Of a stretch of 64,000 bases of DNA, positions 9,461 through 35,076 are shown in pieces. The notes below the pieces were generated by a model. The model saw only the letters and a list, made by a program, of their open reading frames with translations. It was not told where the DNA came from and did not search any database. A program made the translations under genes and the position numbers. This DNA comes from an uncultured Clostridia bacterium (GTDB lineage Bacteria; Bacillota; Clostridia; TANB77; CAG-508). The stretch covers positions 98,789-162,788 of the forward strand of contig CAKPNF010000002.1 of assembly GCA_934168305.1 (NCBI GenBank). The letters run 5' to 3'. Position 1 is the stretch's first letter, and each line of letters starts with the position of its first letter.

Positions 9461-9512
9461 AATTGTATTTTTTAATAGAAAATTAGTGGAGATAATTTTT
9501 TTTAAAAGGTAT

Positions 9513-9547
9513 AAATAGTAAGTTGTTGTTGAGGTTAGATTTCTAAT
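9513..9547 (+). repeat. Direct repeat copy 1 (AAATAGTAAGTTGTTGTTGAGGTTAGATTT) upstream of the GNAT gene
   Basis: About 30 of 34 positions are identical to the copy at 10095-10129. The two copies bracket the GNAT ORF. Confidence 0.5.
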
Positions 9548-9572
9548 TATATAAAGAAAGGTTGAAAAATAA

Positions 9573-10052
9573 GTGATTGAAATAGTAGAATATAAGAATG
9601 AATATGCAAAAGATTTGTCAGAAATAATACTAGATAATATGTATAAAATTAATATTAAAGAGCATGGAAAAGATATAATAGATAGAATTTCAAAGTATTT
9701 TACGGAAGATGAAATAAAGAAAAATTTTCCACAAAGAACTAAATGCTTAGTAGCATTAAAAAATGAGAAGGTTGTTGGTACAGCAAGTATTGATCGATAT
9801 AAAGGTGATAAAACAGGAAAAAAGTACATTGTATTAACAGTATTTGTAAAAATAAAAAATCATCGACAAGGAATAGGAAAAGAATTAATTGAAAATATAG
9901 AAAAAATTGCAGTAAATGTTGGGTGTAAGGAGCTAGTAATACCTTCTTCTGTTTACGCTTGTGAATTTTACCGTAAATTTGGATTTGATTATCTAGATGG
10001 AAAGAAAATTCAAAATGAAGATAAGGAATATATTTTAACAAAAAAATATTAA
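9573..10052 (+). CDS. GNAT family N-acetyltransferase
   Basis: Motif A (HRQGIGKELIENIE) and a GNAT fold pattern are present. The start is a GTG. Confidence 0.75.
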   Translation: MIEIVEYKNEYAKDLSEIILDNMYKINIKEHGKDIIDRISKYFTEDEIKKNFPQRTKCLVALKNEKVVGTASIDRYKGDKTGKKYIVLTVFVKIKNHRQGIGKELIENIEKIAVNVGCKELVIPSSVYACEFYRKFGFDYLDGKKIQNEDKEYILTKKY

Positions 10053-10094
10053 TTGATTGCTAGAGGCAAATTACAATTTAGTAATTAGTTAGAA

Positions 10095-10129
10095 AAATAG
10101 TAAGTTGTCGCTGAGGTTGAATTTTGAAA
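10095..10129 (+). repeat. Direct repeat copy 2 (AAATAGTAAGTTGTCGCTGAGGTTGAATTT) downstream of the GNAT gene
   Basis: See copy 1. It lies between the GNAT gene and the recombinase gene. Confidence 0.5.
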
Positions 10130-10266
10130 TTTAAATAAAAAACTATAAATTTTTGAGGTGGGTATATAAAGTATGCTCATCTTTTATTATGTCAATTAAA
10201 TATTGTATAATATAGGTAGAGTTCTATATATTGTAAATTATGGAAAAATGTAAGGAGGTAATTGTC

Positions 10267-11262
10267 ATGAGAGAATTGTTTGTTGAAAAAGTAATTGATT
10301 GGGCAGGAGAATTTTTAGACAATAACCAAAGAATAAAATTAAAAGAGATACTTACAGAAATATGTTTAAATTATCACATTGAAATATTAGAACAAAACCA
10401 AAAACAAGAAATACAAAAGAACAATGAAGAAATATTAAATAAATTTATATCATCAAAAGAAATTGAAGGCTGTTCAGTTAGAACATTAAAATATTATAAA
10501 GATAATATAACAAAAATGTTAGATACTGTAAATCTTCCAATAAATGAAATTACAATGGAAACATTAAGAAATTATTTATCAAATTATAAAAACAATTCAA
10601 CTGCGGGTATGGTAACAATAGATAATATAAGAAGAACATTATCAAGTTTTTTTGCTTGGTTGGAAAACGAAGACTATATTGTAAAAAGTCCTGTTAGAAG
10701 AATCCATAAAGTAAAAGCAGTGAAAAAGGTAAAAGAAACGTTAACAGATGAAAATTTAGAAAAATTAAGAGATACTTGCTCAAATGTAAGAGATTTAGCA
10801 ATATTAGAACTATTAATTTCAACTGGTATGAGAGTCGGAGAACTTACTAGATTAAATATATCAGATATGAATTTTCAAGAAAGAAGTTGTATTGTTATAG
10901 GAAAAGGGAATAGTGAAAGAGAAGTTTATTTTAGTGCAAAGAGTAAAATGTATATAAAGAAATATTTGGAAACAAGAACAGATAATAATGAAGCATTATT
11001 TGTTTCACTTATAAAACCCTATAATCGATTAGGAATATCAGGGATTGAAATTGCTATTAGAAACTTAGGAAAACAAGCAAATATAAACAAGGTACATCCA
11101 CATAAATTTAGAAGAACAATGGCAACGATGGCTATTGATAAAGGCATGCCAATAGAACAAGTTCAAAAATTATTGGGACACATAAAAATAGATACTACAA
11201 TGGAATATGCAATGGTAAATCAAAATAATGTAAAAAATTCACATAGAAAATATATTAATTAA
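10267..11262 (+). CDS. Tyrosine-type site-specific recombinase/integrase (XerD-like with an N-terminal extension)
   Basis: The C-terminal catalytic region (HPHKFRRTMATMAIDKGMPIEQVQKLLGHIKIDTTMEYAMV) carries the R..H..R..Y signature. A SAM-like N-domain is present. A strong RBS AAGGAGG sits 8 nt upstream of the ATG. Confidence 0.85.
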   Translation: MRELFVEKVIDWAGEFLDNNQRIKLKEILTEICLNYHIEILEQNQKQEIQKNNEEILNKFISSKEIEGCSVRTLKYYKDNITKMLDTVNLPINEITMETLRNYLSNYKNNSTAGMVTIDNIRRTLSSFFAWLENEDYIVKSPVRRIHKVKAVKKVKETLTDENLEKLRDTCSNVRDLAILELLISTGMRVGELTRLNISDMNFQERSCIVIGKGNSEREVYFSAKSKMYIKKYLETRTDNNEALFVSLIKPYNRLGISGIEIAIRNLGKQANINKVHPHKFRRTMATMAIDKGMPIEQVQKLLGHIKIDTTMEYAMVNQNNVKNSHRKYIN

Positions 11263-11607
11263 ATTGGATAAATAAAAAGTTGAATGTATAAAGCAAAAAG
11301 TCAGGATTAAATGATAAAAAATTCAAAAATTATATTAAAACCTAGTAATATTAACGGTTACATGAAATTTAAAACATCAAAAACAGTTAAGGCCGTTGAT
11401 ATTGCTAGTTTTAGATATTTAATTAATATTTTATTGGATTTTTAAATTCTGAAATAGTTAATTTGGCTGAATATAATTTTATATATTTTTAATATACAAA
11501 AAATTAAATTTTTGTAATAAAAGATTTTTGTAATCCAATTGCATAAAGAATTACAACTTTTAAAAATAAAATTTCATGATTTAGTAATGGCAAAAAGTCA
11601 GAAAATA

Positions 11608-11636
11608 TAGACAATTCAATGTTTTTGTAATATAAT
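11608..11636 (+). promoter_or_regulatory. Sigma-A-like promoter TAGACA-17-TATAAT for the five-gene module
   Basis: The -35 element TAGACA is at 11608-11613 and the -10 element TATAAT at 11631-11636, with a 17 nt spacer. It lies about 30 bp upstream of the Nudix gene. Confidence 0.5.
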
Positions 11637-11663
11637 GATTGTATCAAAAAAGGAGGCATTTAA

Positions 11664-12206
11664 ATGGAAGAGAAGTTAGACGTATTAAATGAACGTGGGG
11701 AGTTTACAGGAAAGGTAGCTACAAGAGAAGAATGTCACAGGGAAGGATTGTGGCACAGAGCTGTATACGGATTCATAATAGATAAAAATTCAAATGTATT
11801 ATTACAAAAAAGAAGTCAAAATAAAAAACTATGGCCGAACAAATGGGATGTAACTGTTGGTGGACATGTGGATTCAGGTGAATTTGGAAGACAAACAATA
11901 ATCAGAGAGTGTAAAGAAGAACTTGGAATTGATGTAAAAGAAAACGAAATAAAATATCTAATATCTTCTACATCTGTGTATGAAAAGAATAACTATTCAA
12001 ATAAGCACTATGATGAATGTTATTTGATTTTGAAAGATGTTGACATTACAAAGTTAAAACTTCAAAAAGAGGAGGTATCTGATGTTCAGTATTTTTCGAA
12101 AGAAGAATTATTAGAAAGAATAGAAAATAATTTTGATGGATTAACAGAAAAAACTGGTTCATGGCATTTTTTAAAGAAAATATTAGAAGATGGTAGAATA
12201 AACTAA
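11664..12206 (+). CDS. Nudix hydrolase
   Basis: A complete Nudix box GGHVDSGEFGRQTIIRECKEELGI (Gx5Ex7REUxEExGU) is present. Confidence 0.85.
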   Translation: MEEKLDVLNERGEFTGKVATREECHREGLWHRAVYGFIIDKNSNVLLQKRSQNKKLWPNKWDVTVGGHVDSGEFGRQTIIRECKEELGIDVKENEIKYLISSTSVYEKNNYSNKHYDECYLILKDVDITKLKLQKEEVSDVQYFSKEELLERIENNFDGLTEKTGSWHFLKKILEDGRIN

Positions 12207-12242
12207 AATAGAGATTACAAATATAACATGGAGGTAAAATGT

Positions 12243-12893
12243 ATGTTGAGCTTACACTATGATTTAGATAATGAAAAAGTAAAATATTTAATTACTACAG
12301 ATGACAAATTAGGTAAATTAATTAAATATATCAATAAAACTGAATTGATAATTGAAGAAGATGGCTTTAAATGTATTGTTAAGTATATAATAGGACAGCA
12401 AATTAGTGATAAAGCTCGTGAAACTATTTGGCAACGTGTATGTGCAATTTTGAAAAATATAACACCTGAAAATATACTAGCGATAAATGATAATGAATTA
12501 AGAAAAGTAGGATTATCAGAACGTAAAATTAATTACATAAAAATATTAGCATCAGCTGTTATCAGTGAAGATATAAATTTTTATGATTTTAAGGAACTCA
12601 CCAATGAAGAAATTATAAAAAAGTTAACTGCATTAAAAGGTATTGGTCAATGGACTGCTGAAATGTATTTGATTTTTTCATTAGGAAGAGAAAATGTACT
12701 TTCAAAAGGAGATGGAACAATTAGACGTACAATACAGTGGATGTACGATTTGGAAAAATTACCATCTTCGGAAATATTGCTTAAATATTTTAGCAGTTGG
12801 ACTCAGTATGCAACAATTGTATCATCATATCTTTGGAAATCAATTGAATTAGGATTGGTGCAAAGACCTTTTAATGAGATTATATCAAATTAG
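12243..12893 (+). CDS. HhH-GPD family DNA glycosylase (AlkA / 3-methyladenine DNA glycosylase II-like)
   Basis: The helix-hairpin-helix LKGIGQWTAEMYLIFSLGRENVLSKGDGTIRR includes the catalytic Asp. The likely start is the ATG at 12243, after a GGAGG RBS. Confidence 0.75.
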   Translation: MLSLHYDLDNEKVKYLITTDDKLGKLIKYINKTELIIEEDGFKCIVKYIIGQQISDKARETIWQRVCAILKNITPENILAINDNELRKVGLSERKINYIKILASAVISEDINFYDFKELTNEEIIKKLTALKGIGQWTAEMYLIFSLGRENVLSKGDGTIRRTIQWMYDLEKLPSSEILLKYFSSWTQYATIVSSYLWKSIELGLVQRPFNEIISN

Positions 12894-12905
12894 GAGGCTA
12901 AAAGT

Positions 12906-14156
12906 ATGGATAATGGAAAATTATATTGGATGAATTATTCTATTAATATTGCTAATGGTTCAAAAGATAATAATTTGCGTGTAGGTGCTGTTTTAGTTAC
13001 AGAAGATAATAAGCTAGTTTGTTCTGCTTATACAGACGAATGTTCTGGTTTATCGTGGTATGAAATATTATTGTCTAAAATAGAAAAAATAAATGTAAAT
13101 AAGGCTTACTATTTATTTTTAACAGTAAATACACTATTTTCGGAATCAGAATTTGACTTAAATAAACTAATGGAAAAAATAGCCATTGAAGAAATATACA
13201 TAGGTGTTCCAGACCCTAATTTGGCAGATTATTTATCGAATGATCCGATTGGTACATTCAGGAATATTTATCGTTATTCAGACAATTTGAAAAGAATGAT
13301 ATTGCAGCAAAATCTTAATTATTACAGAAATGTTAAACAAAATATAAAATCTAGTCCATATTATTCTGCTAAGAGAATAAGCAATATAGTTATGGAAAAA
13401 CTAGAAGAAAAAGGTATTTTTATTTCTAAAGAAGAATTGCAATCAAATAAACAAATTGAAAAATTAATTCAATTGATTGTTGAAAAGTATAAGTTTAATA
13501 TAGATGATGCTAGTAAGCTAGTAAATTTGGTAATGTCTGAAGCATTTGATGAGAAATATGCAACATATAATTATTCAGATGATGCTCGTTCACTTAGTGT
13601 GGATTGGAAGAATAATTTTTTAAAGATATATAACAAACTGTTATTATCTTCATTGGAAAATAAAGATATATTAGATGTTGGTGTAGGAAGTGGTAATGAA
13701 GCAATAGCATTATTTTCTAATTGCCCTAATATTACATTTGTTGATATTGCACCAAATGGTTTGAAAAAGATAAAAAAACAAATTCCGAAATCAAATATTG
13801 TTGTATCAAGGGCTGAAAAGCTTGTTACATTAATAAATAATAGCTATGATATTTATATATCATTAAGAACATATAATTCGTCCTTTTTCAATGTAAAACA
13901 AGCAATTTCAGAAGCACATAGAGTTTTAAAAAAAGATGGTATTATAATTATTTCTATTGCAAATGGTTTTTTAAGCCCAGAGAATCAATATATAATTCCG
14001 GGCTTACTTATTCCAGGAACAGAGTTTGTTGATATTTATAGAGGGTTTGATATTATAAAGAAATTGTCGACAGAACTTTGTAATAATGGTTTTGAAGATA
14101 TTAAATTTTTTCCAACAAAGGTAGAACTTTTTTTAACGGCTAAGGCAAAAAAATGA
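12906..14156 (+). CDS. Fusion of a cytidine/dCMP-deaminase-fold-like N-domain (zinc ligands not conserved) to a class I SAM-dependent methyltransferase
   Basis: The N-domain reads VGAVLVTEDNKLVCSAYTDEC...YLFLTVNTL...IEEIYIGVPDPN. It parallels the CDA fold but lacks the H-A-E and PCxxC motifs. The C-domain carries MTase motif I (LDVGVGSGNEAIALF) and a post-II motif (VLKKDGIIIIS). Confidence 0.6.
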   Translation: MDNGKLYWMNYSINIANGSKDNNLRVGAVLVTEDNKLVCSAYTDECSGLSWYEILLSKIEKINVNKAYYLFLTVNTLFSESEFDLNKLMEKIAIEEIYIGVPDPNLADYLSNDPIGTFRNIYRYSDNLKRMILQQNLNYYRNVKQNIKSSPYYSAKRISNIVMEKLEEKGIFISKEELQSNKQIEKLIQLIVEKYKFNIDDASKLVNLVMSEAFDEKYATYNYSDDARSLSVDWKNNFLKIYNKLLLSSLENKDILDVGVGSGNEAIALFSNCPNITFVDIAPNGLKKIKKQIPKSNIVVSRAEKLVTLINNSYDIYISLRTYNSSFFNVKQAISEAHRVLKKDGIIIISIANGFLSPENQYIIPGLLIPGTEFVDIYRGFDIIKKLSTELCNNGFEDIKFFPTKVELFLTAKAKK

Positions 14157-14181
14157 TGTGAATTTTTAAAGGAGGTACTAA

Positions 14182-14937
14182 ATGATTGAACCAAAAACAT
14201 TTGCTCAGAAAGTAATAGAATTTAATAAAGAATTATCCAAAATATCAATGGAATTACCGGATGGTTTTAAAATTATAAATCCATTTAATGGAAGTCAAAA
14301 AGAAATAGTAAATGAAATTTCAACAGTATTCTACAAAAGGTTTTATAATGACTGTAATAAGCGTCATATAATATTAGGAAGTTCTCCAGCACGTAGAGGA
14401 ACAGCTATTACAGGTGTACCATTTGAGGATGCGGCACATCTTCAAAAAGAAACGGGTATTCTGATTGATAAGTTTTATGTTAACAAGTCATCGTCAGGCT
14501 TTTTATATGATGTAATTGAAAAATATGGTGGCTGCAAAAAGTTTTATTCTGATTTTTATATGAATTTTGTCTGTCCTGTTGGTATAGTTAGAACTAATTC
14601 AAAAGGAAATGAAGTTAACTGTAATTATTATGATAGTAAAAAATTACAAGAAACATTGTATTCACTTATTGTTAATTCAATACAGGCACAAATTGATTTA
14701 GGAATTGATACTTCCATATGTTATTGTATCGGAAGTGGAGAAAATTATACTTTTTTATCTAAGATAAATGAAAAACACAAATTTTTTGAAGAAATTATAC
14801 CATTAGAACATCCACGATTTATAATGCAATATAATTCAAAACATAAAGATGAATTTCTTGAAAAGTATTTGACAGCTTTAAAACAAAATCATAATAAAGA
14901 AAAGGAGAATAATATAGAATATGATAGAGAAAGATAG
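14182..14937 (+). CDS. Uracil-DNA glycosylase superfamily-like protein (divergent)
   Basis: A motif-A-like GSSPARRGTAITGVPFED (GxxPxxxGxxxxGxPF) and a motif-B-like EHPRF (HP) sit near the C-terminus. Several Cys residues are present. The family assignment needs an HMM search. Confidence 0.5.
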   Translation: MIEPKTFAQKVIEFNKELSKISMELPDGFKIINPFNGSQKEIVNEISTVFYKRFYNDCNKRHIILGSSPARRGTAITGVPFEDAAHLQKETGILIDKFYVNKSSSGFLYDVIEKYGGCKKFYSDFYMNFVCPVGIVRTNSKGNEVNCNYYDSKKLQETLYSLIVNSIQAQIDLGIDTSICYCIGSGENYTFLSKINEKHKFFEEIIPLEHPRFIMQYNSKHKDEFLEKYLTALKQNHNKEKENNIEYDRER

Positions 14938-15703
14938 TAAAATATTAGTTCATTTTGATACTAACGATACAAGTATATATCAGCTAAAAGGAGATAGTAT
15001 ATCATTAATAAAAAAAGAAAGAGTTTTTTTTAATGAAACACTAATACATGACGAGTTATTCAAAAAGATTGATTATGTTATTGAAAAACTAAGAATGATT
15101 GTAGAAAAAGTTGATAATGAAAGTGTAAGATTATATGCTACTGGAGTCTTTCAGGAATTTTCAGAAGAAGAACAAACACAATTAATAATACATGTTTTTG
15201 TAAATTCAGGCTTATGTTTTAATATAGTAAAGCCTGATTTAGAACAATTTTACATTGAAAAAGGTTTGGAGAAAAGTAACGAAAAAAATATTATTAATGG
15301 AATTGTTCAACAGGAATTTAGAAAGGTTGTTATATGTGGTAGTTTTCAACAGAATATGCAAGAAATAGGGAACATCATAGGAATCTTAAAAAAACGAAAT
15401 ATTCAGATATTAAGTCCTTGGACAATGGATATTGTTCCTGAGTCCTTAGGTACTGACTTTATTCTTCTAGAAGGTCAAGAGTTAGTAAATGAAAGGGATG
15501 CATGGAGACATAAATATGATCATATGAATAAATTTAAAAAAGCAGATGCTATTATAGTATGTAATCCTGAAGGAAGAATAGGAAAAGGGACTATGTTTGA
15601 ATTTGGTTTCATGATAGCGTATTCAAAAAGAATTATTTTTACAAATGAACCGAAAGACTTATCAATTCCATTTCCATATGAGATAGGATTAAATTTTATG
15701 TAA
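14921..15703 (+). CDS. Unknown N-domain fused to a nucleoside 2-deoxyribosyltransferase / DNPH1(Rcl)-like domain
   Basis: The C-terminal half reads KVVICGSF...ADAIIVCNPEGRIGKGTMFEFGFMIAYSKRIIF. It resembles the NDT/DNPH1 pattern (YFCGSI...ADaviAxLDg..D.GTa.EiGyA.algKpv). The ORF overlaps the upstream gene by 17 bp. Confidence 0.5.
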   Translation: MIEKDSKILVHFDTNDTSIYQLKGDSISLIKKERVFFNETLIHDELFKKIDYVIEKLRMIVEKVDNESVRLYATGVFQEFSEEEQTQLIIHVFVNSGLCFNIVKPDLEQFYIEKGLEKSNEKNIINGIVQQEFRKVVICGSFQQNMQEIGNIIGILKKRNIQILSPWTMDIVPESLGTDFILLEGQELVNERDAWRHKYDHMNKFKKADAIIVCNPEGRIGKGTMFEFGFMIAYSKRIIFTNEPKDLSIPFPYEIGLNFM

Positions 15704-15883
15704 TATTTTATTGAAATAGAATAATTTGAAATTTGCAAAAAGAACAGCTTATATAAGAATTTTTTAGATGTTCTTTTATTAAAAATATAAGTTATGCATC
15801 TTAGCAACAAATTACAATTTATCGTTGAAAATAAATTAGTAACAATTAATTATACTTTACATAAAATAAAGTCAAAAATTCAT

Positions 15884-15911
15884 TGACAAACTTTGAATTT
15901 AGTAGTATAAT
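15884..15911 (+). promoter_or_regulatory. Sigma-A promoter TTGACA-16-TATAAT upstream of typA
   Basis: A TTGACA is at 15884-15889 and a TATAAT at 15906-15911. Confidence 0.5.
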
Positions 15912-15960: not shown

Positions 15961-17775
15961 ATGAACAACAAAAATATAAGAAACATAGCAATAATAGCAC
16001 ACGTTGACCATGGAAAAACAACATTAGTAGATGCATTATTAAGACAAAGTCATGTATTCAGAGAAAATGAACAAGTCCAAGAAAGAGTAATGGACTCAAA
16101 TGACCAAGAAAAAGAAAGAGGAATAACAATACTATCTAAAAACACATCAGTAATGCACGGAGACATCAAAATAAACATAGTAGACACACCAGGACATGCT
16201 GACTTCGGAGGAGAAGTAGAAAGAGTTTTAAAAACAGTTGATGGAGTTTTACTATTAGTAGACGCATTTGAAGGAGCAATGCCACAAACAAGAGAAGTAC
16301 TAAAAAAATCATTAGCATTAGGACTAAAACCAATAGTAGTAATAAACAAAATAGATAGACCTGGAGCACAACCAGAAAAAGTTGTAGATCAAGTTATCGA
16401 ATTATTCATTGAACTAGATGCAACAGACGAACAATTAGACTTCCCTGTAGTATATGCATCAGCAAAAAACGGAATTGCAAAAATGGACTTAGCAGATGAA
16501 ACAACAGATTTATCTTGCTTATTTGAAACTATAATAAACACAATAGAACCACCAAAATGTGAAATAGAAGGACCAGCACAAATGTTAGTATCTAACATAG
16601 ATTATGACGATTATGTTGGAAGAATTGGTATAGGAAGACTTGAAAGAGGAACAATGAAAGTTGGAATGCCAGTCAGCATTTGTGGAAAAGAAGACAAAAT
16701 AACACAAGGAAGAATAGCAAAATTATATACACACGTTGGACTTAAAAAAGTTGAAGTTGAAGAAGTTGGAGCAGGTGATATCATAGAATTTGCAGGACTA
16801 TCAGACATCAACATAGGTGATACAGTATGTGATTTTGAACATCCAGAAAAAATACCATTTGTAGACATTGACGAACCAACAGTAACAATGACATTTAGTG
16901 TAAACAATGGACCATTTGCTGGAAAAGAAGGACAATTTGTAACATCAAGACATATAAGAGATAGATTATATAAAGAACTAGAAAGAAACGTATCATTAAG
17001 AGTAAAAGATGGAGCAACACCAGACTCATTTGAAGTATCAGGTAGAGGTGAATTACATTTATCAGTATTAATCGAAACAATGAGAAGAGAAGGATTTGAA
17101 CTATTAGTTTCAAGACCAAAAGTTATTTTCAAAGAAATTGATGGAGTTAAATGTGAACCAATCGAACTATTAGTTGTAAATGTACCAGATGACTGTGTAG
17201 GAAATGTAATTGAAAAATTAGGAAGAAGAAAAGCTGAAATGGTTAACATGGAACCTGCAGAGGCTGGACATACAAAAATAGAATTCAGAATTCCTGCAAG
17301 AGGAATAATTGGATATAGAACAGAATTCCTTACAGACACAAAAGGTGAAGGAACAATGAACCACATATTTGACGCATATGAACCATATAAAGGAGATATC
17401 CAAGCTCGTGTTAGAGGAACAATAGTTGCATTTGAACCAGGTAAATCAGTAACATACGGATTATATAATGCACAAGATAAAGGTGACCTATTCATAGGAC
17501 CAGGTGTAGATGTTTACGAAGGTATGATTGTTGGATTAAATTCAAGAGGAGAAGATTTAGCAATAAATGTATGTAAAGAAAAACACTTAACAAATACTAG
17601 AGCATCAGGTTCAGATGAAGCATTAAGACTAGTTCCACCAATCCAAATGTCACTAGAAAAAGCTATTGAATTTATTCAAGATGATGAACTAGTTGAAATA
17701 ACACCAAAATCTATTAGATTGAGAAAAAAAATATTAGATTCTAAAGAAAGAGAAAGAGCTAATAGAAACAAATAA
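15961..17775 (+). CDS. typA: Translational GTPase TypA/BipA
   Basis: The G-domain carries AHVDHGKTTL, DTPGHADF and NKID. The 604 aa protein has EF-G-like architecture. Confidence 0.9.
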   Translation: MNNKNIRNIAIIAHVDHGKTTLVDALLRQSHVFRENEQVQERVMDSNDQEKERGITILSKNTSVMHGDIKINIVDTPGHADFGGEVERVLKTVDGVLLLVDAFEGAMPQTREVLKKSLALGLKPIVVINKIDRPGAQPEKVVDQVIELFIELDATDEQLDFPVVYASAKNGIAKMDLADETTDLSCLFETIINTIEPPKCEIEGPAQMLVSNIDYDDYVGRIGIGRLERGTMKVGMPVSICGKEDKITQGRIAKLYTHVGLKKVEVEEVGAGDIIEFAGLSDINIGDTVCDFEHPEKIPFVDIDEPTVTMTFSVNNGPFAGKEGQFVTSRHIRDRLYKELERNVSLRVKDGATPDSFEVSGRGELHLSVLIETMRREGFELLVSRPKVIFKEIDGVKCEPIELLVVNVPDDCVGNVIEKLGRRKAEMVNMEPAEAGHTKIEFRIPARGIIGYRTEFLTDTKGEGTMNHIFDAYEPYKGDIQARVRGTIVAFEPGKSVTYGLYNAQDKGDLFIGPGVDVYEGMIVGLNSRGEDLAINVCKEKHLTNTRASGSDEALRLVPPIQMSLEKAIEFIQDDELVEITPKSIRLRKKILDSKERERANRNK

Positions 17776-17798: not shown

Positions 17799-18134
17799 AT
17801 GGCCAAAAAAATGAATAAAAGGGGTAAAATAGAAATACATAGAATTACTCGTGGAGTTACAATCGATAATATTGCTAGAAATATTGAAGTTAGAAATAGT
17901 TCTGTTGCTGGAATAATAAGGGATGATACTAAAAATAGAACATATGTAATAAATAAAATATTGGATAATATGTCTAATGGAATGACAGAAGATGATTCAT
18001 TAGAATTAATAATGCAAGATAAAATTGTTGAACAATTTAAATATCTTGAAAACAATGGATGTAACATAAAGAATTGTTTTAGAAATTGGGCAAGAGGTTA
18101 TAAAAATAGAAAAGAAAAACAAAAAGAAAAATAA
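17799..18134 (+). CDS. Hypothetical protein (111 aa, basic C-terminus)
   Basis: It is an ORF with an RBS directly after typA. A weak terminator hairpin lies at about 18137-18165. No family was recognised. Confidence 0.45.
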   Translation: MAKKMNKRGKIEIHRITRGVTIDNIARNIEVRNSSVAGIIRDDTKNRTYVINKILDNMSNGMTEDDSLELIMQDKIVEQFKYLENNGCNIKNCFRNWARGYKNRKEKQKEK

Positions 18135-18186
18135 AAGTTAGACTTAAAGGTCTGACTTTTTTAAATAAAAAATAGAGGTTATTAAG

Positions 18187-18774
18187 ATGAATAAGAATGA
18201 ATTAGAAATAATAAAACAGAAAGCATTAGAAGCACATATACCTATAATAATGGATGATACTTTAGAGATAATTGAAAAAGAATTAAAAGAAAATCCACCA
18301 AAAAGAATATTGGAAATAGGAGCAGCAGTTGGATATTCTGCAATGTGTTTTTCAGAATTTTTAGCTGATGAAGGTAGAATAGATACAATTGAAAGAGATG
18401 AAGAAAGAATTCAAGAAGCAAAAGAAAACTTCAAAAAAGTTGGAGTAGAAAACAAAATCAACCTTTATGAAGGAGATGCTGTCGAAATTTTACCAACACT
18501 AAATGAAAAATATGATATGGTTTTTATTGATGCGGCAAAAGGAAAATATCCATTTTTCTTAAAGGAATCATTAAGAATGATAAATGAAAATGGAGTTATT
18601 TTTGCAGATAATATTTTGTATAAAGGTTATGTTATGAGTGATTATAACAAACATAAACAACGTACTGCTGTAAGAAATTTAAGAGAATATATAAAAGAAG
18701 TTTCTGAAAATCCAAATCTTGAAACAGAAATTTTGGAAGTAGGAGATGGATTAGCAATAAGTAAAATAAAATAG
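18187..18774 (+). CDS. Class I SAM-dependent O-methyltransferase (YrrM/TrmR-like)
   Basis: Motif I ILEIGAAVGYSAM is present. The ~195 aa size and the caffeoyl-CoA-OMT-like pattern (VFIDAAKGKY) fit. Confidence 0.7.
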   Translation: MNKNELEIIKQKALEAHIPIIMDDTLEIIEKELKENPPKRILEIGAAVGYSAMCFSEFLADEGRIDTIERDEERIQEAKENFKKVGVENKINLYEGDAVEILPTLNEKYDMVFIDAAKGKYPFFLKESLRMINENGVIFADNILYKGYVMSDYNKHKQRTAVRNLREYIKEVSENPNLETEILEVGDGLAISKIK

Positions 18775-18845
18775 TTATAAGTAAAAATTTCTCTATGTAA
18801 GTGGGGATGTTATTCTTTAAATAATTAAAAAAGAAGTGCACTGCG

Positions 18846-19997
18846 TTATAAGTAATGTACTTCTTTTTGTGCATCTTCTTTTTGACTATTAGTTTGTTGA
18901 TTTAATAATTTACAATTTCTAATTTTTGTTCTTAATTCTTTCATTGATATACCAAGTTCTTTTTCAACTTGATAAAGTTCATTTTTAAAGTTTTCATATG
19001 TAATAGGTAAAGTTCTTTTTGATAAACTTAGTTCGTGATTATTTAAAGATGTATTATAATAATGATAAAAACGTTCATTATGTGGAATATCATATACCTC
19101 ATATTTTCCTGTTTCGGGATTTGGAAAAGGTGGGATAACTGAATATGAGGGAACTCTTAAAGAAGAAGTATCATTTAGTAGCCTTGGTTTGTATTTGTTA
19201 TGAGCAATTTCGTTAGAACTTTTTGATTGACTTTCCATATAAAGAGTTCTAATTTGTGTTTCGTAGTCTAAATCTTTATTATTTTTTGATTCCATTTGAA
19301 TATGTAAAGACTGATATCCATTTGGCTTCGGACATTCAATATAATCTCTTGTAATATATTCCTTATCAGAATTTGAACGATTTGAATTAACATCTTCTTT
19401 CATTCTAAAATTTGTATTAATTCTAAAATCATATAATGCCTTTACGACATCATAACAAATTTTTTTTAGAACTTTTTCACTTCTACAATTTTTATACTCT
19501 GTAATTATAATTCTTTCTGCAATAATGTCGTTTATATATGGTGATTTTCCATTTTCTATATTATGGTCTAATTTTGTTATATAACTTTCATAAGATTTTG
19601 TTCTGATTTTTATTGTAAAAACCAAGCCCGGAAATCTCTCTTTTAAGAATTCATTTTCTTTTAATGCATATTCTTTTATTTCATCTACATATTCTTTGGT
19701 ATATAATTGATATCTATTTAGTAAGTCTTGATAGTCTGGATAATTCTTTAAATATGAAAGCTTGTTTTCAACTAAAGGTAATTGAAAAAGCAAATGATTT
19801 GAGGAATCATCTGAAGTATTTGCTAATCTTACATTTAGGTATTTATTATCATCAGATATACTAACTTGTAAATTTTTAGATACATTTAATAAACCTAATT
19901 CGGATAGTATGGAATTTTTATCAAAATTAGAATTGGAAATATTGCTTTTACAAGAAACTTCGTATTTTAAATTTTTTTTAAAATTATTTGTTTTCAA
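18846..19997 (-). CDS. RelA/SpoT-domain (RSH) nucleotide pyrophosphokinase-domain protein, divergent and extended
   Basis: The synthetase-domain motifs are present: IKIRTKSYESYITKL (RxKxxxSxxxK), NDIIAERII (DxxGxR-like), PNGYQSLHIQM (GYxSxH) and ETQIRTLYMES...AHNKYK. These are embedded in a 383 aa protein with about 100 aa N-terminal and 115 aa C-terminal extensions. Confidence 0.7.
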   Translation of the reverse strand: MKTNNFKKNLKYEVSCKSNISNSNFDKNSILSELGLLNVSKNLQVSISDDNKYLNVRLANTSDDSSNHLLFQLPLVENKLSYLKNYPDYQDLLNRYQLYTKEYVDEIKEYALKENEFLKERFPGLVFTIKIRTKSYESYITKLDHNIENGKSPYINDIIAERIIITEYKNCRSEKVLKKICYDVVKALYDFRINTNFRMKEDVNSNRSNSDKEYITRDYIECPKPNGYQSLHIQMESKNNKDLDYETQIRTLYMESQSKSSNEIAHNKYKPRLLNDTSSLRVPSYSVIPPFPNPETGKYEVYDIPHNERFYHYYNTSLNNHELSLSKRTLPITYENFKNELYQVEKELGISMKELRTKIRNCKLLNQQTNSQKEDAQKEVHYL

Positions 19998-20170
19998 AAA
20001 AATTCCTCCTTAAAATAATTTAGCACAAAATCAATTATACCAAATTTTTACTGAAAATACAATAGATAAAAGAAAAAACTTTATGTAAAATGTTGTCGAA
20101 TTATTGACAAAACATATTAAATCAGTGTATATTTAATAAAGAATATATTTGAAGGGATAGAGAATAAAAA

Positions 20171-21406
20171 ATGAAAAAAATAGAACTATTAGCACCAGCA
20201 GGATCATTTGAAAAAGCAAAAACAGCATTTAAATATGGAGCAGACGCAGTATATTGTGGAACATCATCATTATCACTAAGAACAAGAGCAGATATGGATA
20301 ATGACGACTTAATAAAAACAATAGAATATGCACACAGCATAGGAAAAAGAGTACATGTAACACTAAACATATTTGCATGGGACGATAAATATGAAGAAAT
20401 AATAGAAATGGCAAAAATATTAAATGAAGTAAAACCAGACGCAATAATAGCAGCAGACGGAGGAGTAATAGAAACATTAAAACAATATGCACCAAATGTA
20501 CCGATACATGTAAGTACACAAGCAAACATAGTAAGTGTACATGATGCAAACTTCTGGTATAAAAACGGAGCCGAAAGAGTAATAATGGCAAGAGAAATAA
20601 ACAAAGAACAATTAAAATACATAATGGAAAACAAACCAAAAGACTTAGAAGTAGAAATGTTCGGACATGGTTCAATATGTTTTGCGTTTTCAGGAAGATG
20701 TTTTTTGAGTGATTTTATGTGCGGAAGAAGTGCAAATTTAGGAGATTGTGCACAAAGTTGTAGATGGTCGTACAATTTATATGCAGAAGAGAAAAACAAT
20801 CCTGGACAATTATATCCAATAGAAGAAAGCAAATATGGAACAAGTATATTCTCATCAAAAGATTTATGCTTGATAAAAGAGATACCAGAAATAATAGATA
20901 TGGGTATAGATAGCTTAAAAATAGAAGGAAGACTAAAAACAGAGTATTACATAGCAAGCGTGATAAATGTTTATAGAAATGCAATTGACGATTATATGAA
21001 AGACCCAGAAAATTATGATTATACAAAGTATATGAAAGAAATTGAAAAGGTAAAAACAAGAGAATTCACAACATTTTATTTTAATGATAGAAAAAATAAA
21101 GATATCCAAGATTTAAGTGGAAGACAATATAATGACAAATATGAATTTGGTGGAAAAATATTAAAATACGAAGAAGAAAAATCAACAATAGAAATAAAAA
21201 ATAAATTGATGCTAGGAGATACAATTGAAATAATAATTCCAAACAAGCTAGAACCAGAAATATTCAAGATAGAAAAATTATGGGATTATGAAACAGGAGA
21301 AAAAATCGATAGTGTAAGTCCTGGTGTAAAAGGACAAAAAGTATTTATGAAATTGCCAATCAAATGTGAAGAAGGATGGATATTAAGAAGAAAGAAGAGG
21401 GATTAA
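20171..21406 (+). CDS. Peptidase U32 family protein
   Basis: The N-terminus is ELLAPAGSFEKAKTAFKYGADAVYCG and the core is E.GHGS.C, the U32 collagenase-like signature. The last codons (KRD-stop) lie inside a repeat unit. Confidence 0.85.
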   Translation: MKKIELLAPAGSFEKAKTAFKYGADAVYCGTSSLSLRTRADMDNDDLIKTIEYAHSIGKRVHVTLNIFAWDDKYEEIIEMAKILNEVKPDAIIAADGGVIETLKQYAPNVPIHVSTQANIVSVHDANFWYKNGAERVIMAREINKEQLKYIMENKPKDLEVEMFGHGSICFAFSGRCFLSDFMCGRSANLGDCAQSCRWSYNLYAEEKNNPGQLYPIEESKYGTSIFSSKDLCLIKEIPEIIDMGIDSLKIEGRLKTEYYIASVINVYRNAIDDYMKDPENYDYTKYMKEIEKVKTREFTTFYFNDRKNKDIQDLSGRQYNDKYEFGGKILKYEEEKSTIEIKNKLMLGDTIEIIIPNKLEPEIFKIEKLWDYETGEKIDSVSPGVKGQKVFMKLPIKCEEGWILRRKKRD

Positions 21407-21537
21407 GGGGCCACCACACAAAATCCCTCTTTCTTGAACCAAAGTTGACGTTTTGAACCATTGGTTCAAAACTTTGGTTTATTTAAATATTCTAAAAATT
21501 TTAAAAGAGGGATTTTGTGTGGTGGCCCCTTAATCCC
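21399..21537. repeat. Family-1 palindromic repeat: two inverted 29 bp units GGGATTAAGGGGCCACCACACAAAATCCC enclosing nested family-3-like palindromes
   Basis: The units are at 21399-21427 and 21509-21537 (inverted). The inner inverted repeats are AACCAAAGTT/AACTTTGGTT and TTTTGAACCA/TGGTTCAAAA. Both convergent genes terminate (KRD-TAA) within the units. Confidence 0.8.
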
Positions 21538-22090
21538 TCTTTTCTTCATTATTGTCTTCTAATAATATATCAAGTATTTTAGGATATATTTTAGAAGCGT
21601 TTTTATTCCAATTATCCACAATTTTTTTTGCTCTTTCACGAGAACCTGCAAAAGTTTTTACTTCAAATATCGTTTCATTTTTTTCAATAACCCTACATTT
21701 AATAATATAATCATCTTCACTTTTAGGAATAAATTCAGCTACAATAGAAGTTTCATTAGCTATAGTAGTAAATTCTTTCTTAAAAACATTGTCAGCCTTT
21801 AATTTTAATATTCCTGGCAATACATCAATTGTAAGAGAAAGTGCATTTTTTCCTTCGCTTGTTATTTTTAGTACAGATTCTTCTTCTTCATCTTTAGTGA
21901 ATATGCCAACTAATTTGGAATCTAATAAATCAGTCAAAACTTCTTTAAAATAAAAGTAATTAACATTATTTATAGAAGAGATAATTTTATATAATCCACC
22001 TTCCAATATACCATTTGGAATTTTATCTAAGATATATAAAATTAAAACTTTATTTTCAGCCAAAGTAGTTGTATTATCTGAACTAGACAT
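21530..22090 (-). CDS. Hypothetical protein (186 aa), convergent with the U32 gene
   Basis: It is an ORF with an RBS. The C-terminal codons KRD-stop are encoded by the repeat unit. No confident family was recognised. Confidence 0.55.
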   Translation of the reverse strand: MSSSDNTTTLAENKVLILYILDKIPNGILEGGLYKIISSINNVNYFYFKEVLTDLLDSKLVGIFTKDEEEESVLKITSEGKNALSLTIDVLPGILKLKADNVFKKEFTTIANETSIVAEFIPKSEDDYIIKCRVIEKNETIFEVKTFAGSRERAKKIVDNWNKNASKIYPKILDILLEDNNEEKRD

Positions 22091-23375: not shown

Positions 23376-24753
23376 ATGAAAAGTAAAATAACTAATATTA
23401 TATTTTGGATAATTACTTTGATAGCAATAGTTTTAACATTTAATTTTTATAAAAAGAATAATTTTAATGATTTTATAAGAAGTGAAATGAATATGCATAC
23501 ATCAAAATTCCAGAGAGATTCAGAAGTAAAATATTCAAAAAATGATAGCTATAGAATAGTTTCAAGTGAAGAAAATGATGCAACATTTTATAAAACAGTA
23601 AAAGTGCAAAAAAACATGCCATATAAAGTGACATGTATGGTAAAAACAGAAAATGTTGTTGCAGAAAACGATATATCAGGAGTAGGTGCACAAATATCAA
23701 TAGTTGGAACAGCGGAAAAATCAATAGCTATAACAGGAACTCAAGATTGGCAAAAGATAGAAATGATATTTAACTCAAAAGATAGAGAAGAGGTAGATAT
23801 TGGTTTTAGGTTAGGAGGATATTTAGGAAAATGTACAGGAACAGCTTGGTTTTCAGATTTTACATTTGAAGAAGGAACAACTAGCGAAAATAATGATTGG
23901 AATTTTGCATGTTTTATATTTGAAAATACAGATGTGGTTATAGACGGGAAAGAAGTAAAGATATCTATGACTAATAATGATATATTAGATATAAAAGATA
24001 CAATAAAGAGATTTGAAACAAATATAAAAAATTTATCTCAAAACAAAATGACTGCAAATTGCGATGTATATAATATACAAAAGCCAATAAATAAATTAAC
24101 ATATGATGAAGAATTTGGATATTTTGTAGCAGCAGAAGATGTTGAAAGTAGCATAAAAAGCGTAATTGAGTTAAATAATTATGACCATATTTTTGTTATC
24201 ATAAGATTAGGAAATGAACAGTATAAAGATGATATTAAGATAAATGATTGGATAGGGCTTCGGTTCTATGGATTATTATGGAATAGGTTACTCAAATATA
24301 AGATTACCAAACTCATCTAAAAGTTACATATATAGATATGATACAAGAATAAATATATTTCCTGAAGAAGTGTTTTTACATGAATTTCTACATTCATTGG
24401 AAAGAACTTCAGAAGAATACGGGTATGATATACCGGCTTTACATGATTATGAAAAATATGGATATAAAAATCAAAAATTGACAGGTTTAAAAGATTGGTA
24501 CAAAGACTATATGAATAAAAATGTAAAAACTTCAAATGGTTATATAGGATTACCAGAACAAGTATACACTTTAAAACCTGCAAAAAATTCGGACTTTAAA
24601 TATTCTTATAAGATTGAAGAATTTCACGAACCACAAAACTTGTTAGAAGATATTAAACAGTTGTTTAAAAATGTTGTTAACAATGTTAAAAATATAAAAA
24701 AGACATTTGATAATAAGACAATTCAAAATTTAGAAGTTAATAGTACAAATTAG
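23376..24753 (+). pseudogene. Membrane-anchored putative HExxH zinc-metalloprotein, split by a +1 frameshift near 24255-24270 (two ORFs 23376-24320 and 24268-24753)
   Basis: Two adjacent ORFs in different frames overlap by 53 bp. The second carries VFLHEFLHSLE (HExxH). The N-terminal ORF has a TM helix plus a beta-rich domain. This could be a genuine frameshift or a sequencing error. Confidence 0.5.
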
Positions 24754-35000: not shown

Positions 35001-35076
35001 GCTTGCATAGCTCAGTTGGTAGAGTACTGCTTTGGTAAAGCAGAGGTCACGGGTTCAATTCCCGTTGTAAGCCCCA
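35001..35076 (+). tRNA. tRNA-Thr (anticodon GGT)
   Basis: The cloverleaf has acceptor GCTTGCA/TGTAAGC, D-stem AGCTC, anticodon stem CTGCT/AGCAG with loop TTGGTAA (anticodon GGT), T-arm ACGGG-TTCAATT-CCCGT and an encoded CCA. Confidence 0.9.

Follow-up and report, generated by a model that had tools for sequence, protein, structure and literature searches.

A gene on the minus strand of a 64 kb window (the whole stretch of DNA analysed, 64,000 nucleotides of contig CAKPNF010000002.1 from an uncultured Clostridia bacterium) encodes a 383-residue protein of the small alarmone synthetase (SAS) class with an added module at each end of its synthetase core. We lean towards reading it as a lineage-specific SAS in which a RelP-like core makes (pp)pGpp, expression is driven by the gene's own sigma-A-type promoter and the two added modules tune activity. 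The protein belongs to the SAS class of the RelA/SpoT homologues (RSH) while fitting neither RelQ/RelP, nor the CapRel-type fused toxic SASs (toxSAS), nor the bicistronic toxSAS. A toxin or defence role is not supported.

With ATP-Mg bound as donor, the RelP-like core would transfer the beta,gamma-pyrophosphate group to the 3'-OH of a purine nucleotide that the G-loop tyrosine holds in place. GDP, GTP or GMP is the likeliest acceptor, so that (pp)pGpp would be the product. The gene would be transcribed alone from a conserved sigma-A-type promoter. Comparison with relatives shows an ancestral form of ~233–260 aa, already beside a TrmR-like methyltransferase gene and typA. The clade of the window organism (relatives of Clostridium sp. 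CAG:389) then gained an N-terminal beta-domain (~residues 25–88) and a C-terminal helical tail (~330–383). These two modules may set or gate activity via oligomerisation or a bound partner.

The family is without a name in the databases searched. A search of 5.8 billion proteins recovered 117 homologue clusters of 340–399 aa (query coverage 85–100%), all from gut metagenomes or 'Clostridia bacterium' metagenome-assembled genomes, for which the sole source name is 'hypothetical protein'. When 1.84 billion representatives were searched exhaustively with a profile, only 24 clusters fell below 1e-30. No curated NCBIfam model is reached at its cut-off by family members, and a full-text literature search on toxSAS and SAS subfamilies found no description of this architecture. 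Phage and plasmid searches returned no close relative, with weak matches confined to the synthetase core region.

The gene and its synthetase core

The open reading frame (ORF) at 18846..19997 (minus strand) is a real gene. It begins with a TTG codon, ends with a stop codon at 18846-18848 and is preceded by a strong Shine-Dalgarno sequence, AAGGAGG, read at 20005..20011 on the minus strand, 7 nt before the start. Seven divergent alleles carry a purine-rich AAGGAG-type ribosome-binding site at the same position, in the form AGGAAG in L004 (L numbers denote compared loci). The N-terminal MxxNxFK is kept in homologues whether they start with ATG or TTG. Further upstream, a putative sigma-A-type promoter is read at 20034..20062 (minus strand; TTGTAT, 17 nt, then TGgTATAAT as an extended -10). 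Its GTATAAT is invariant in 7/7 alleles and its TG is retained in 6/7; a generic promoter scan did not list it.

Little else marks the flanks of the gene. An earlier note on this DNA placed it between convergent terminators; a terminator scan of 18100-20400 found no intrinsic terminator, and folding of the gene's 3' region is no stronger than that of shuffled sequence (z=-0.01). Rfam finds no element at or near the gene, and a riboswitch or leader RNA was dropped on that ground. A CodY-like box in the promoter spacer was also dropped, as by eye it is not conserved among alleles. The ORF is separated by 71 bp from the convergent methyltransferase gene and by 173 bp from the divergent peptidase-U32 gene. 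No antitoxin-sized gene therefore fits beside it, in line with the earlier note.

Pfam RelA_SpoT (PF04607) matches residues 132-270 at E=2.4e-12, scoring 47.6 bits vs a gathering cutoff of 27. It is the sole Pfam match at E<=1, with no HD hydrolase, TGS or ACT domain, and the fold comparisons of the structural model reveal no other known domain either. A score above the gathering threshold and a complete catalytic set place the protein in the RSH superfamily, and a synthetase domain without these three accessory domains places it in the SAS class. All of the synthetase motifs that the earlier note had quoted are present in the protein: IKIRTKSYESYITKL at residues 129-143, DIIAERII (157-164), GYQSLH (227-232), ETQIRT (246-251) and AHNKYK (265-270). 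The core itself, a nucleotidyltransferase fold, spans residues 122-270 (19188..19634, minus strand). Its predicted donor-ATP residues are R132, K134, S138, K142 and R162, and its predicted Mg ligands are D157 and E246. The G-loop contributes P223, K224, N226 and Y228, and H232, Q248, R250, H266, Y269 and K270 are conserved too. An alignment of 52 sequences has 35 invariant columns and a mean column identity of 50%, with the catalytic-set columns invariant or nearly so.

The core resembles RelP in its key residues. The G-loop segment of the family, DYIxxPKxNGYQSLH, is close to KDYIqtPKpNGYRSLH of B. subtilis RelP. The Lys, Asn and His of this segment (here K224, N226 and H232) presumably contact the guanine-nucleotide acceptor, as in the Rel_Seq structure. 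S. aureus RelP (SaRelP) stacks adenine with R78 and R112, binds the ATP phosphates through K80, S84 and K88, coordinates Mg through D107 and E174, contacts the ribose through H190 and carries Y151 and P146 in its G-loop (PMC5794853). The family counterparts are R132 and R162 for adenine stacking, K134, S138 and K142 for the phosphates, D157 and E246 for Mg, H266 for the ribose, and Y228 and P223 in the G-loop. Arg91 of RelP is the sole listed residue with no evident counterpart in the family. This residue pattern makes it very probable that the protein is an active pyrophosphokinase, its G-loop being stiffened by proline as in RelP.

One variable feature lies within the core. A subset of alleles (P0021, P0032, P0041, P0059 and P0084) has a ~20-aa insertion (e.g. 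KERNLLKKKYANNEEILKQLYAE) at alignment columns 222-243, after the strand with the catalytic Asp-Arg pair. It is an allele-specific surface feature beside the active site.

Profile and fold comparisons both lead to the same group of enzymes. Against PDB sequences the family profile matches B. subtilis RelP (6fgk, 7.8e-11) first, followed by S. aureus RelP, Rel, RelA and RelQ, with E-values from 7.8e-11 to 1e-4. In a Foldseek search of the PDB, S. aureus RelP 6ex0 (1.5e-5), several Rel catalytic domains (7oiw/6s2u) and B. subtilis RelQ 5ded come first, with Tas1 lower and weak (E=1.9e-3); only ~180-200 residues align. RelP (SAS2, YwaC) and RelQ (SAS1, YjbM), the best profile and fold matches, are likewise synthetase-only enzymes without a hydrolase domain. 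RelP in particular shares the G-loop proline and, Arg91 aside, an identical ATP-binding and catalytic set. Helices also follow the core where RelP and RelQ have a four-helix oligomerisation bundle, and both of these enzymes tetramerise through their C-terminal helices (PMC11782079).

Despite these likenesses, the protein is neither RelQ nor RelP, which agrees with the earlier note's description of a stand-alone, extended RelA/SpoT-synthetase protein. Identity to RelP and RelQ is ~20%. At 383 aa vs about 210-230 aa, the protein differs in having an 88-aa N-terminal addition with a beta-domain, a beta-containing insert (C1) between the core and the helices with invariant P283, Y285, F310 and Y311, and a distinct, highly variable C-terminal tail; no helical bundle follows directly after the core. 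The NCBIfam RelQ equivalog NF053588 (YjbM) gives the window protein 17 bits vs a cutoff of 320, and the best E among the 52 members, 2.4e-8, is also far under the cutoff. A further SAS subgroup of Firmicutes/Clostridia, cloRel, was named by Atkinson et al. 2011 (PMC3153485). Like the present family, it is described as a synthetase-only RSH restricted to Clostridia. The short orthologues described below (233-260 aa) could be of the same lineage as cloRel. The table of Atkinson et al. 2011 mentions no added N- or C-terminal modules for cloRel (PMC3153485).

Terminal modules and a conserved chromosomal slot

An AlphaFold2 model built from the family alignment has a pLDDT of 85.4 and a pTM of 0.80, with pLDDT >90 across most of residues 31-60, 71-260, 271-310 and 331-360. 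The N-terminal module (residues 1-88; 19734..19997, minus strand) consists of the motif MxxNxFKxxLK, a variable linker and a small beta-rich domain at 43-74, with strands at 43-47, 53-58 and 71-74 (DSSP on the model). A long helix follows (residues 89-121; 19635..19733, minus strand; pLDDT above 90) and leads into the synthetase core, modelled as an RSH fold at residues 122-260. This helix is common to the short orthologues and RelP-type SAS, and aligns to RelP from residue 50.

Two segments lie beyond the core. C1 (residues 271-316; 19050..19187, minus strand) has the pattern PRLLND...VPxY...FYHxY and comprises a short helix, a strand, a short beta bridge and a helix, with a beta/alpha segment at 278-315 in the model. 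It is found in short orthologues and not in RelP or RelQ. Its four invariant residues hold across all 52 sequences, and P283 is invariant in the short forms too. The C2 tail (residues 317-383; 18849..19049, minus strand) starts with a disordered loop (319-327) and continues as three helices, assigned by DSSP to 334-348, 352-360 and 363-382; it may serve in oligomerisation or regulation. Residues 1-88 have a mean pairwise identity of 41%, and C2, the most variable module, one of 34%.

These extensions account for the length of the protein. Some 120 aa precede the RxK strand and 113 aa follow HxxYK, which bears out the earlier note's estimate of ~150 aa more than RelQ/RelP. As the extensions are conserved across the family and confidently predicted to be folded, they are not low complexity. 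The earlier note had offered a diverged housekeeping SAS inflated by AT-rich low complexity as an alternative; the SAS is the better reading, but the length comes from two real folded modules. The C-terminal ~115 aa, described there as Cys-free, contain Cys362, though no CxxC pattern. When residues 271-383 were modelled alone, as a domain in isolation (pLDDT 80.5), no PDB fold matched better than E=2.3, and hence there is no resemblance to a pseudo-Zn-finger. P0136, considered as an instance of the N-domain fused to another protein, was rejected: unrelated sequence begins abruptly after residue 107 and it is probably an assembly chimera.

The gene occupies a fixed place on the chromosome. Its slot runs TypA, O-methyltransferase (OMT), the synthetase gene on the opposite strand, peptidase U32, DUF4364 and LDH. 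The translational GTPase gene typA/bipA (15961..17775, plus strand; TIGR01394, 943 bits) is a conserved member of the slot. The convergent neighbour (18187..18774, plus strand) encodes a TrmR/YrrM-like Methyltransf_3 O-methyltransferase, assigned by PF01596 on orthologues, a Pfam family that includes B. subtilis TrmR/YrrM. The divergent neighbour (20171..21406, plus strand) encodes a peptidase-U32 protein, the best match of which is the tRNA U34 hydroxylase TrhP (NF011996, 330 bits, under the cutoff of 534). The synthetase gene thus lies, on the other strand and with its own putative promoter, between two probable genes of the tRNA U34 ho5U/mo5U pathway.

This arrangement recurs across the compared loci. 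BLAST recovered solely these slot neighbours around the relative in 13/13 species-representative genomes encoding one, and metagenome contigs show the same order. Three of the 13 loci are incomplete: L007 and L008 are without U32, and L012 is without OMT and TypA, though the fetched flanks reach there. The order TypA, OMT, synthetase is kept in every long-form locus reaching that far. OMT is the most constant partner, adjoining the gene at every examined locus that reaches the position, short forms included, except L012, where a truncated 164-aa remnant occupies the slot. U32 adjoins the gene in most long-form loci; in L016-L019 mobile-element genes displace it.

More distant Clostridia carry short orthologues of 233-260 aa in the same slot beside OMT and typA, among them a 255-aa protein in L013, the 245-aa P0134 and the 260-aa P0278. 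Aligned with the long forms, they retain N-terminal motif, helix, core and C1 but have no counterpart of residues ~25-88 and ~330-383. Since long and short forms share one slot, the gene is old and vertically inherited there, and the two terminal modules are later additions. The earlier note would have given up a toxin or defence assignment for a protein that clusters within RelQ/RelP and has conserved synteny; synteny is indeed conserved across related genomes, whereas the protein falls outside RelQ/RelP.

In strains with alleles 84-86% identical to that of the window, mobile-element genes replace U32 directly upstream of the synthetase gene (L016:1-8000, L018:1-6172 and L019). These genes encode Bro-N, phage-type tubulin/FtsZ, thymidylate synthase, DHFR and radical SAM proteins, while L017:1-6784 instead has a large serine recombinase and Mob_Pre. 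In L016-L019 there is also a tRNA gene ~200 bp ahead of the synthetase start, on the opposite strand. The intergenic region between the synthetase and U32 genes appears to be an integration hot spot. On the other side of the synthetase gene, a 111-aa ORF at 17799-18134 (plus strand) between typA and the OMT gene was considered as an antitoxin or regulator and rejected, being absent or unrelated in genomes with nearly the same allele: L014 has a 104-aa, unrelated-looking ORF of 29% identity, and L016 has none. The 111-aa ORF has no Pfam, NCBIfam or PADLOC match. Its slot is variable, with 100-aa and 510-aa ORFs in L024 and a 103-aa ORF with a faint DUF1699 match in L029, and does not co-vary with the synthetase allele.

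Selection, recombination and competing explanations

The ratio of nonsynonymous (dN) to synonymous (dS) divergence, omega, differs sharply between the parts of the protein. It is 0.02-0.09 for helix 89-121, 0.05-0.09 for the synthetase segment 122-270 and 0.02-0.30 for C1 (271-316), rising to 0.15-0.52 for the N-terminal 88 residues and 0.21-0.43 for the last 67. No value exceeds 1. Gene-wide omega is 0.15-0.28 (0.18-0.28 among close alleles), vs 0.02-0.10 for TypA, OMT, U32, DUF4364 and LDH. The synthetase segment thus matches these housekeeping neighbours in omega. The catalytic core is under strong purifying selection, and the N-terminal beta-domain and C-terminal tail evolve faster and recombine. 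Such mosaicism is seen between the window and L016, with dN 0.29 and dS 1.0 for the N-module and dN 0.015 and dS 0.29 for residues 122-270.

Sliding identity over the synthetase gene falls to 59-74% vs 90-97% in TypA, OMT and U32, and its synonymous divergence first looked higher than that of the flanks. An ancient hypervariable cassette older than its flanks was considered and dropped after a control with ordinary neighbours. In all related genomes the GerA, transglutaminase-like, Asp23-like and acyltransferase genes, together with OMT and LDH, have 4-fold divergence of 0.30-0.58 and 73-82% nucleotide identity. The 0.47-0.66 between synthetase alleles is therefore saturated background. It is TypA, U32 and DUF4364 that are unusually slow genes. 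Between species, 4-fold divergence is 0.08-0.20 for TypA (15961-17775), U32 (20171-21406) and DUF4364 (21530-22090), which could reflect codon-usage constraint or cross-species homogenisation.

Recombination also appears to have moved alleles. A young allele is common to the window, L014, L016 and L018 (4-fold divergence 0.09-0.21, core dN 0.015-0.04). L006 and L026, at least as close at eight other genes, have alleles 57% identical with a core dN of ~0.27. This shared young allele and the discordant gene tree suggest that synthetase alleles move between lineages by recombination.

Several observations weigh against a housekeeping (pp)pGpp synthetase. The synthetase is the locally fastest-diverging protein, at 48-59% identity vs 55-99% for ten neighbours, and the discordance of its gene tree with neighbours is unusual for a plain housekeeping enzyme. 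The NCBIfam RelQ, Rel and RelA models match the window protein and the 52 members locally only, far under their cutoffs, and a housekeeping function is therefore not transferable by homology. The 64 kb window holds no second RSH gene, so that no Rel, RelQ or hydrolase is found within it. Lastly, nothing in the conserved catalytic and G-loop residues distinguishes a nucleotide acceptor from the 3'-adenosine of a tRNA. The tRNA-modifying toxSAS FaRel2 retains the ATP-donor set (R64, K66, S70, K74, D90, R95) as well as the G-loop Tyr128 (PMC11782079). Taken alone, the core residues are also compatible with a tRNA or adenine-nucleotide acceptor.

The strongest alternative, although an unlikely one, is that the protein is a single-chain, autoinhibited toxic synthetase that acts as an immune sensor, with the logic of CapRel but not its membership. 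The N-terminal beta-domain, the C-terminal tail or both would keep the core inactive until a phage protein binds, whereupon the core would abort the infection by pyrophosphorylating tRNA 3' ends or by draining ATP. The family shares several traits with CapRel(SJ46): one chain of similar size that joins an RSH synthetase domain to a non-catalytic C-terminal region, no separate antitoxin gene, and terminal modules far more variable than the catalytic core. Extra modules at both ends without a separate antitoxin are what this explanation expects of the family. The two modules are moreover the fastest-evolving parts (omega 0.15-0.52 vs 0.05-0.09) and are swapped by intragenic recombination. Discordance of the gene tree with the flanks, a young allele shared while equally related genomes are only 57% identical, the mobile-element genes and tRNA gene inserted directly upstream in L016-L019 and a ToxN gene nearby in L018 all point the same way. 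A weak local match to the PADLOC candidate PDC-S33 occurs in 49/52 members, but spans the universal G-loop motif only.

The comparisons with known toxins and the distribution of the gene argue against such a sensor. No CapRel, FaRel2 or Tas1 chain is matched by the family profile among PDB sequences at E<=10, and no CapRel is among the top 50 PDB fold matches; the presence of CapRel in this PDB copy was not checked directly for either search. The nearest folds are RelP, Rel and RelQ, and the C-terminal region has no fold match to the pseudo-Zn-finger or to anything else. The toxin domain of CapRel is at the N-terminus, whereas the present family has a large N-terminal extension. CapRel-type proteins are characterised by a related toxSYNTH, a C-terminal pseudo-Zn-finger and carriage on prophages or defence islands with a patchy distribution, none of which is seen here. 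Instead, a homologue sits at the same neighbours in every BLAST-compared related locus and in the short-form loci, distant genomes included, which is unlike the patchiness typical of defence genes. The gene is chromosomally fixed with deep synteny, not borne on prophages, islands, phages or plasmids, and omega is nowhere above 1. As neutral divergence between alleles equals the saturated background of neighbours, there is no evidence of ancient balanced alleles. The earlier note's suggestion of a toxSAS or fused CapRel-like protein is thus not borne out.

The bicistronic toxSAS (FaRel2, PhRel2, FaRel) and the secreted Tas1 share the RSH synthetase fold, and FaRel2 also has an ordered N-terminal extension before its core. 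However, this extension is two helices in FaRel2 and a beta-domain in the present family, no antitoxin or immunity gene adjoins the family gene, and the protein has no secretion-associated domains. The two flanking genes are of a conserved housekeeping type and lie on the other strand.

A related and rather improbable reading treats the N-terminal beta-domain and C-terminal tail as fast-evolving, recombining recognition modules that gate the RelP-like core, making a chromosomally fixed single-protein sensor-effector. It could work as an immune sensor by CapRel-like logic, with an independent origin in a housekeeping SAS lineage. In view of the long-standing position between tRNA U34 modification genes, tRNA is a possible target.

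That position also bears on a further explanation, to which we give quite little credence: a non-defence pyrophosphokinase with another acceptor, either the tRNA 3'-CCA end or adenine nucleotides to give (pp)pApp. Its function would perhaps be tied to the flanking tRNA U34 modification genes (TrmR-like, TrhP-like) or to TypA. The gene splits a would-be trmR-trhP pair, an arrangement persisting to genomes with U32 only 68-70% identical, and the linkage with OMT and typA reaches the short orthologues. Catalytic residues do not tell nucleotide from tRNA 3'-adenosine acceptors, and FaRel2 anchors tRNA by its ordered N-terminal extension (PMC11782079). However, the short orthologues have no N-terminal domain, and both profile and fold put the core closer to (p)ppGpp synthetases than to enzymes that modify tRNA or make (pp)pApp. 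Lying on the opposite strand under its own promoter, the synthetase gene does not share a transcript with either neighbour, and conserved gene order is in itself weak evidence for a common function.

A decaying or functionless relic, its length a product of drift in an AT-rich genome, would explain the fastest-diverging protein of the neighbourhood and the truncated 164-aa remnant in L012, but is close to refuted by full-length ORFs in >100 clusters, 35 invariant columns including the whole catalytic set, omega of 0.15-0.28 gene-wide and 0.05-0.09 in the synthetase segment, added modules confidently predicted to be folded, and a conserved promoter and Shine-Dalgarno sequence.

Surrounding features and significance

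A stretch of ~6.4 kb at window positions 9500-15900 lies between the acyltransferase gene and typA, two genes that are adjacent in the related genomes, which lack it. L007 alone shares ~1 kb of it, the integrase region 10089-11163 (87% nucleotide identity). The stretch encodes a GNAT protein, a tyrosine integrase, an HhH-GPD glycosylase, a UDG-superfamily protein, a nucleoside-2-deoxyribosyltransferase-like protein, a NUDIX hydrolase with a weak match to PADLOC PDC-S07, and a 416-aa methyltransferase protein with an unassigned N-terminal half and a weak PADLOC mad2 match. It looks like an integrated DNA-modification/repair, possibly defence, island. L018 has its ToxN toxin gene at this spot.

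Further along the window, 314-aa and 161-aa ORFs without a Pfam match (23376-24320 and 24268-24753, plus strand) overlap by 53 nt in different frames; they may be a single gene split by a frameshift or an error of sequencing. A single tRNA gene at 35001-35073 (plus strand) is the sole Rfam gathering-level match in the 64 kb. Elsewhere, a ParE toxin/RHH antitoxin pair lies near the gene for ribosomal protein L31 at L020:12413-12738, in a genome with a 245-aa short orthologue.

Small alarmone synthetases span harmless stress-signal enzymes, toxins and phage sensors. The present family offers a natural series in one chromosomal slot, with short forms of 233-260 aa on the one hand and long forms with two fast-evolving modules on the other. 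The long forms occur in abundant, uncultured gut species. If the modules are regulatory, they would represent a new way to control alarmone synthesis; if they are sensors, the family would capture a housekeeping enzyme turning into a defence protein.

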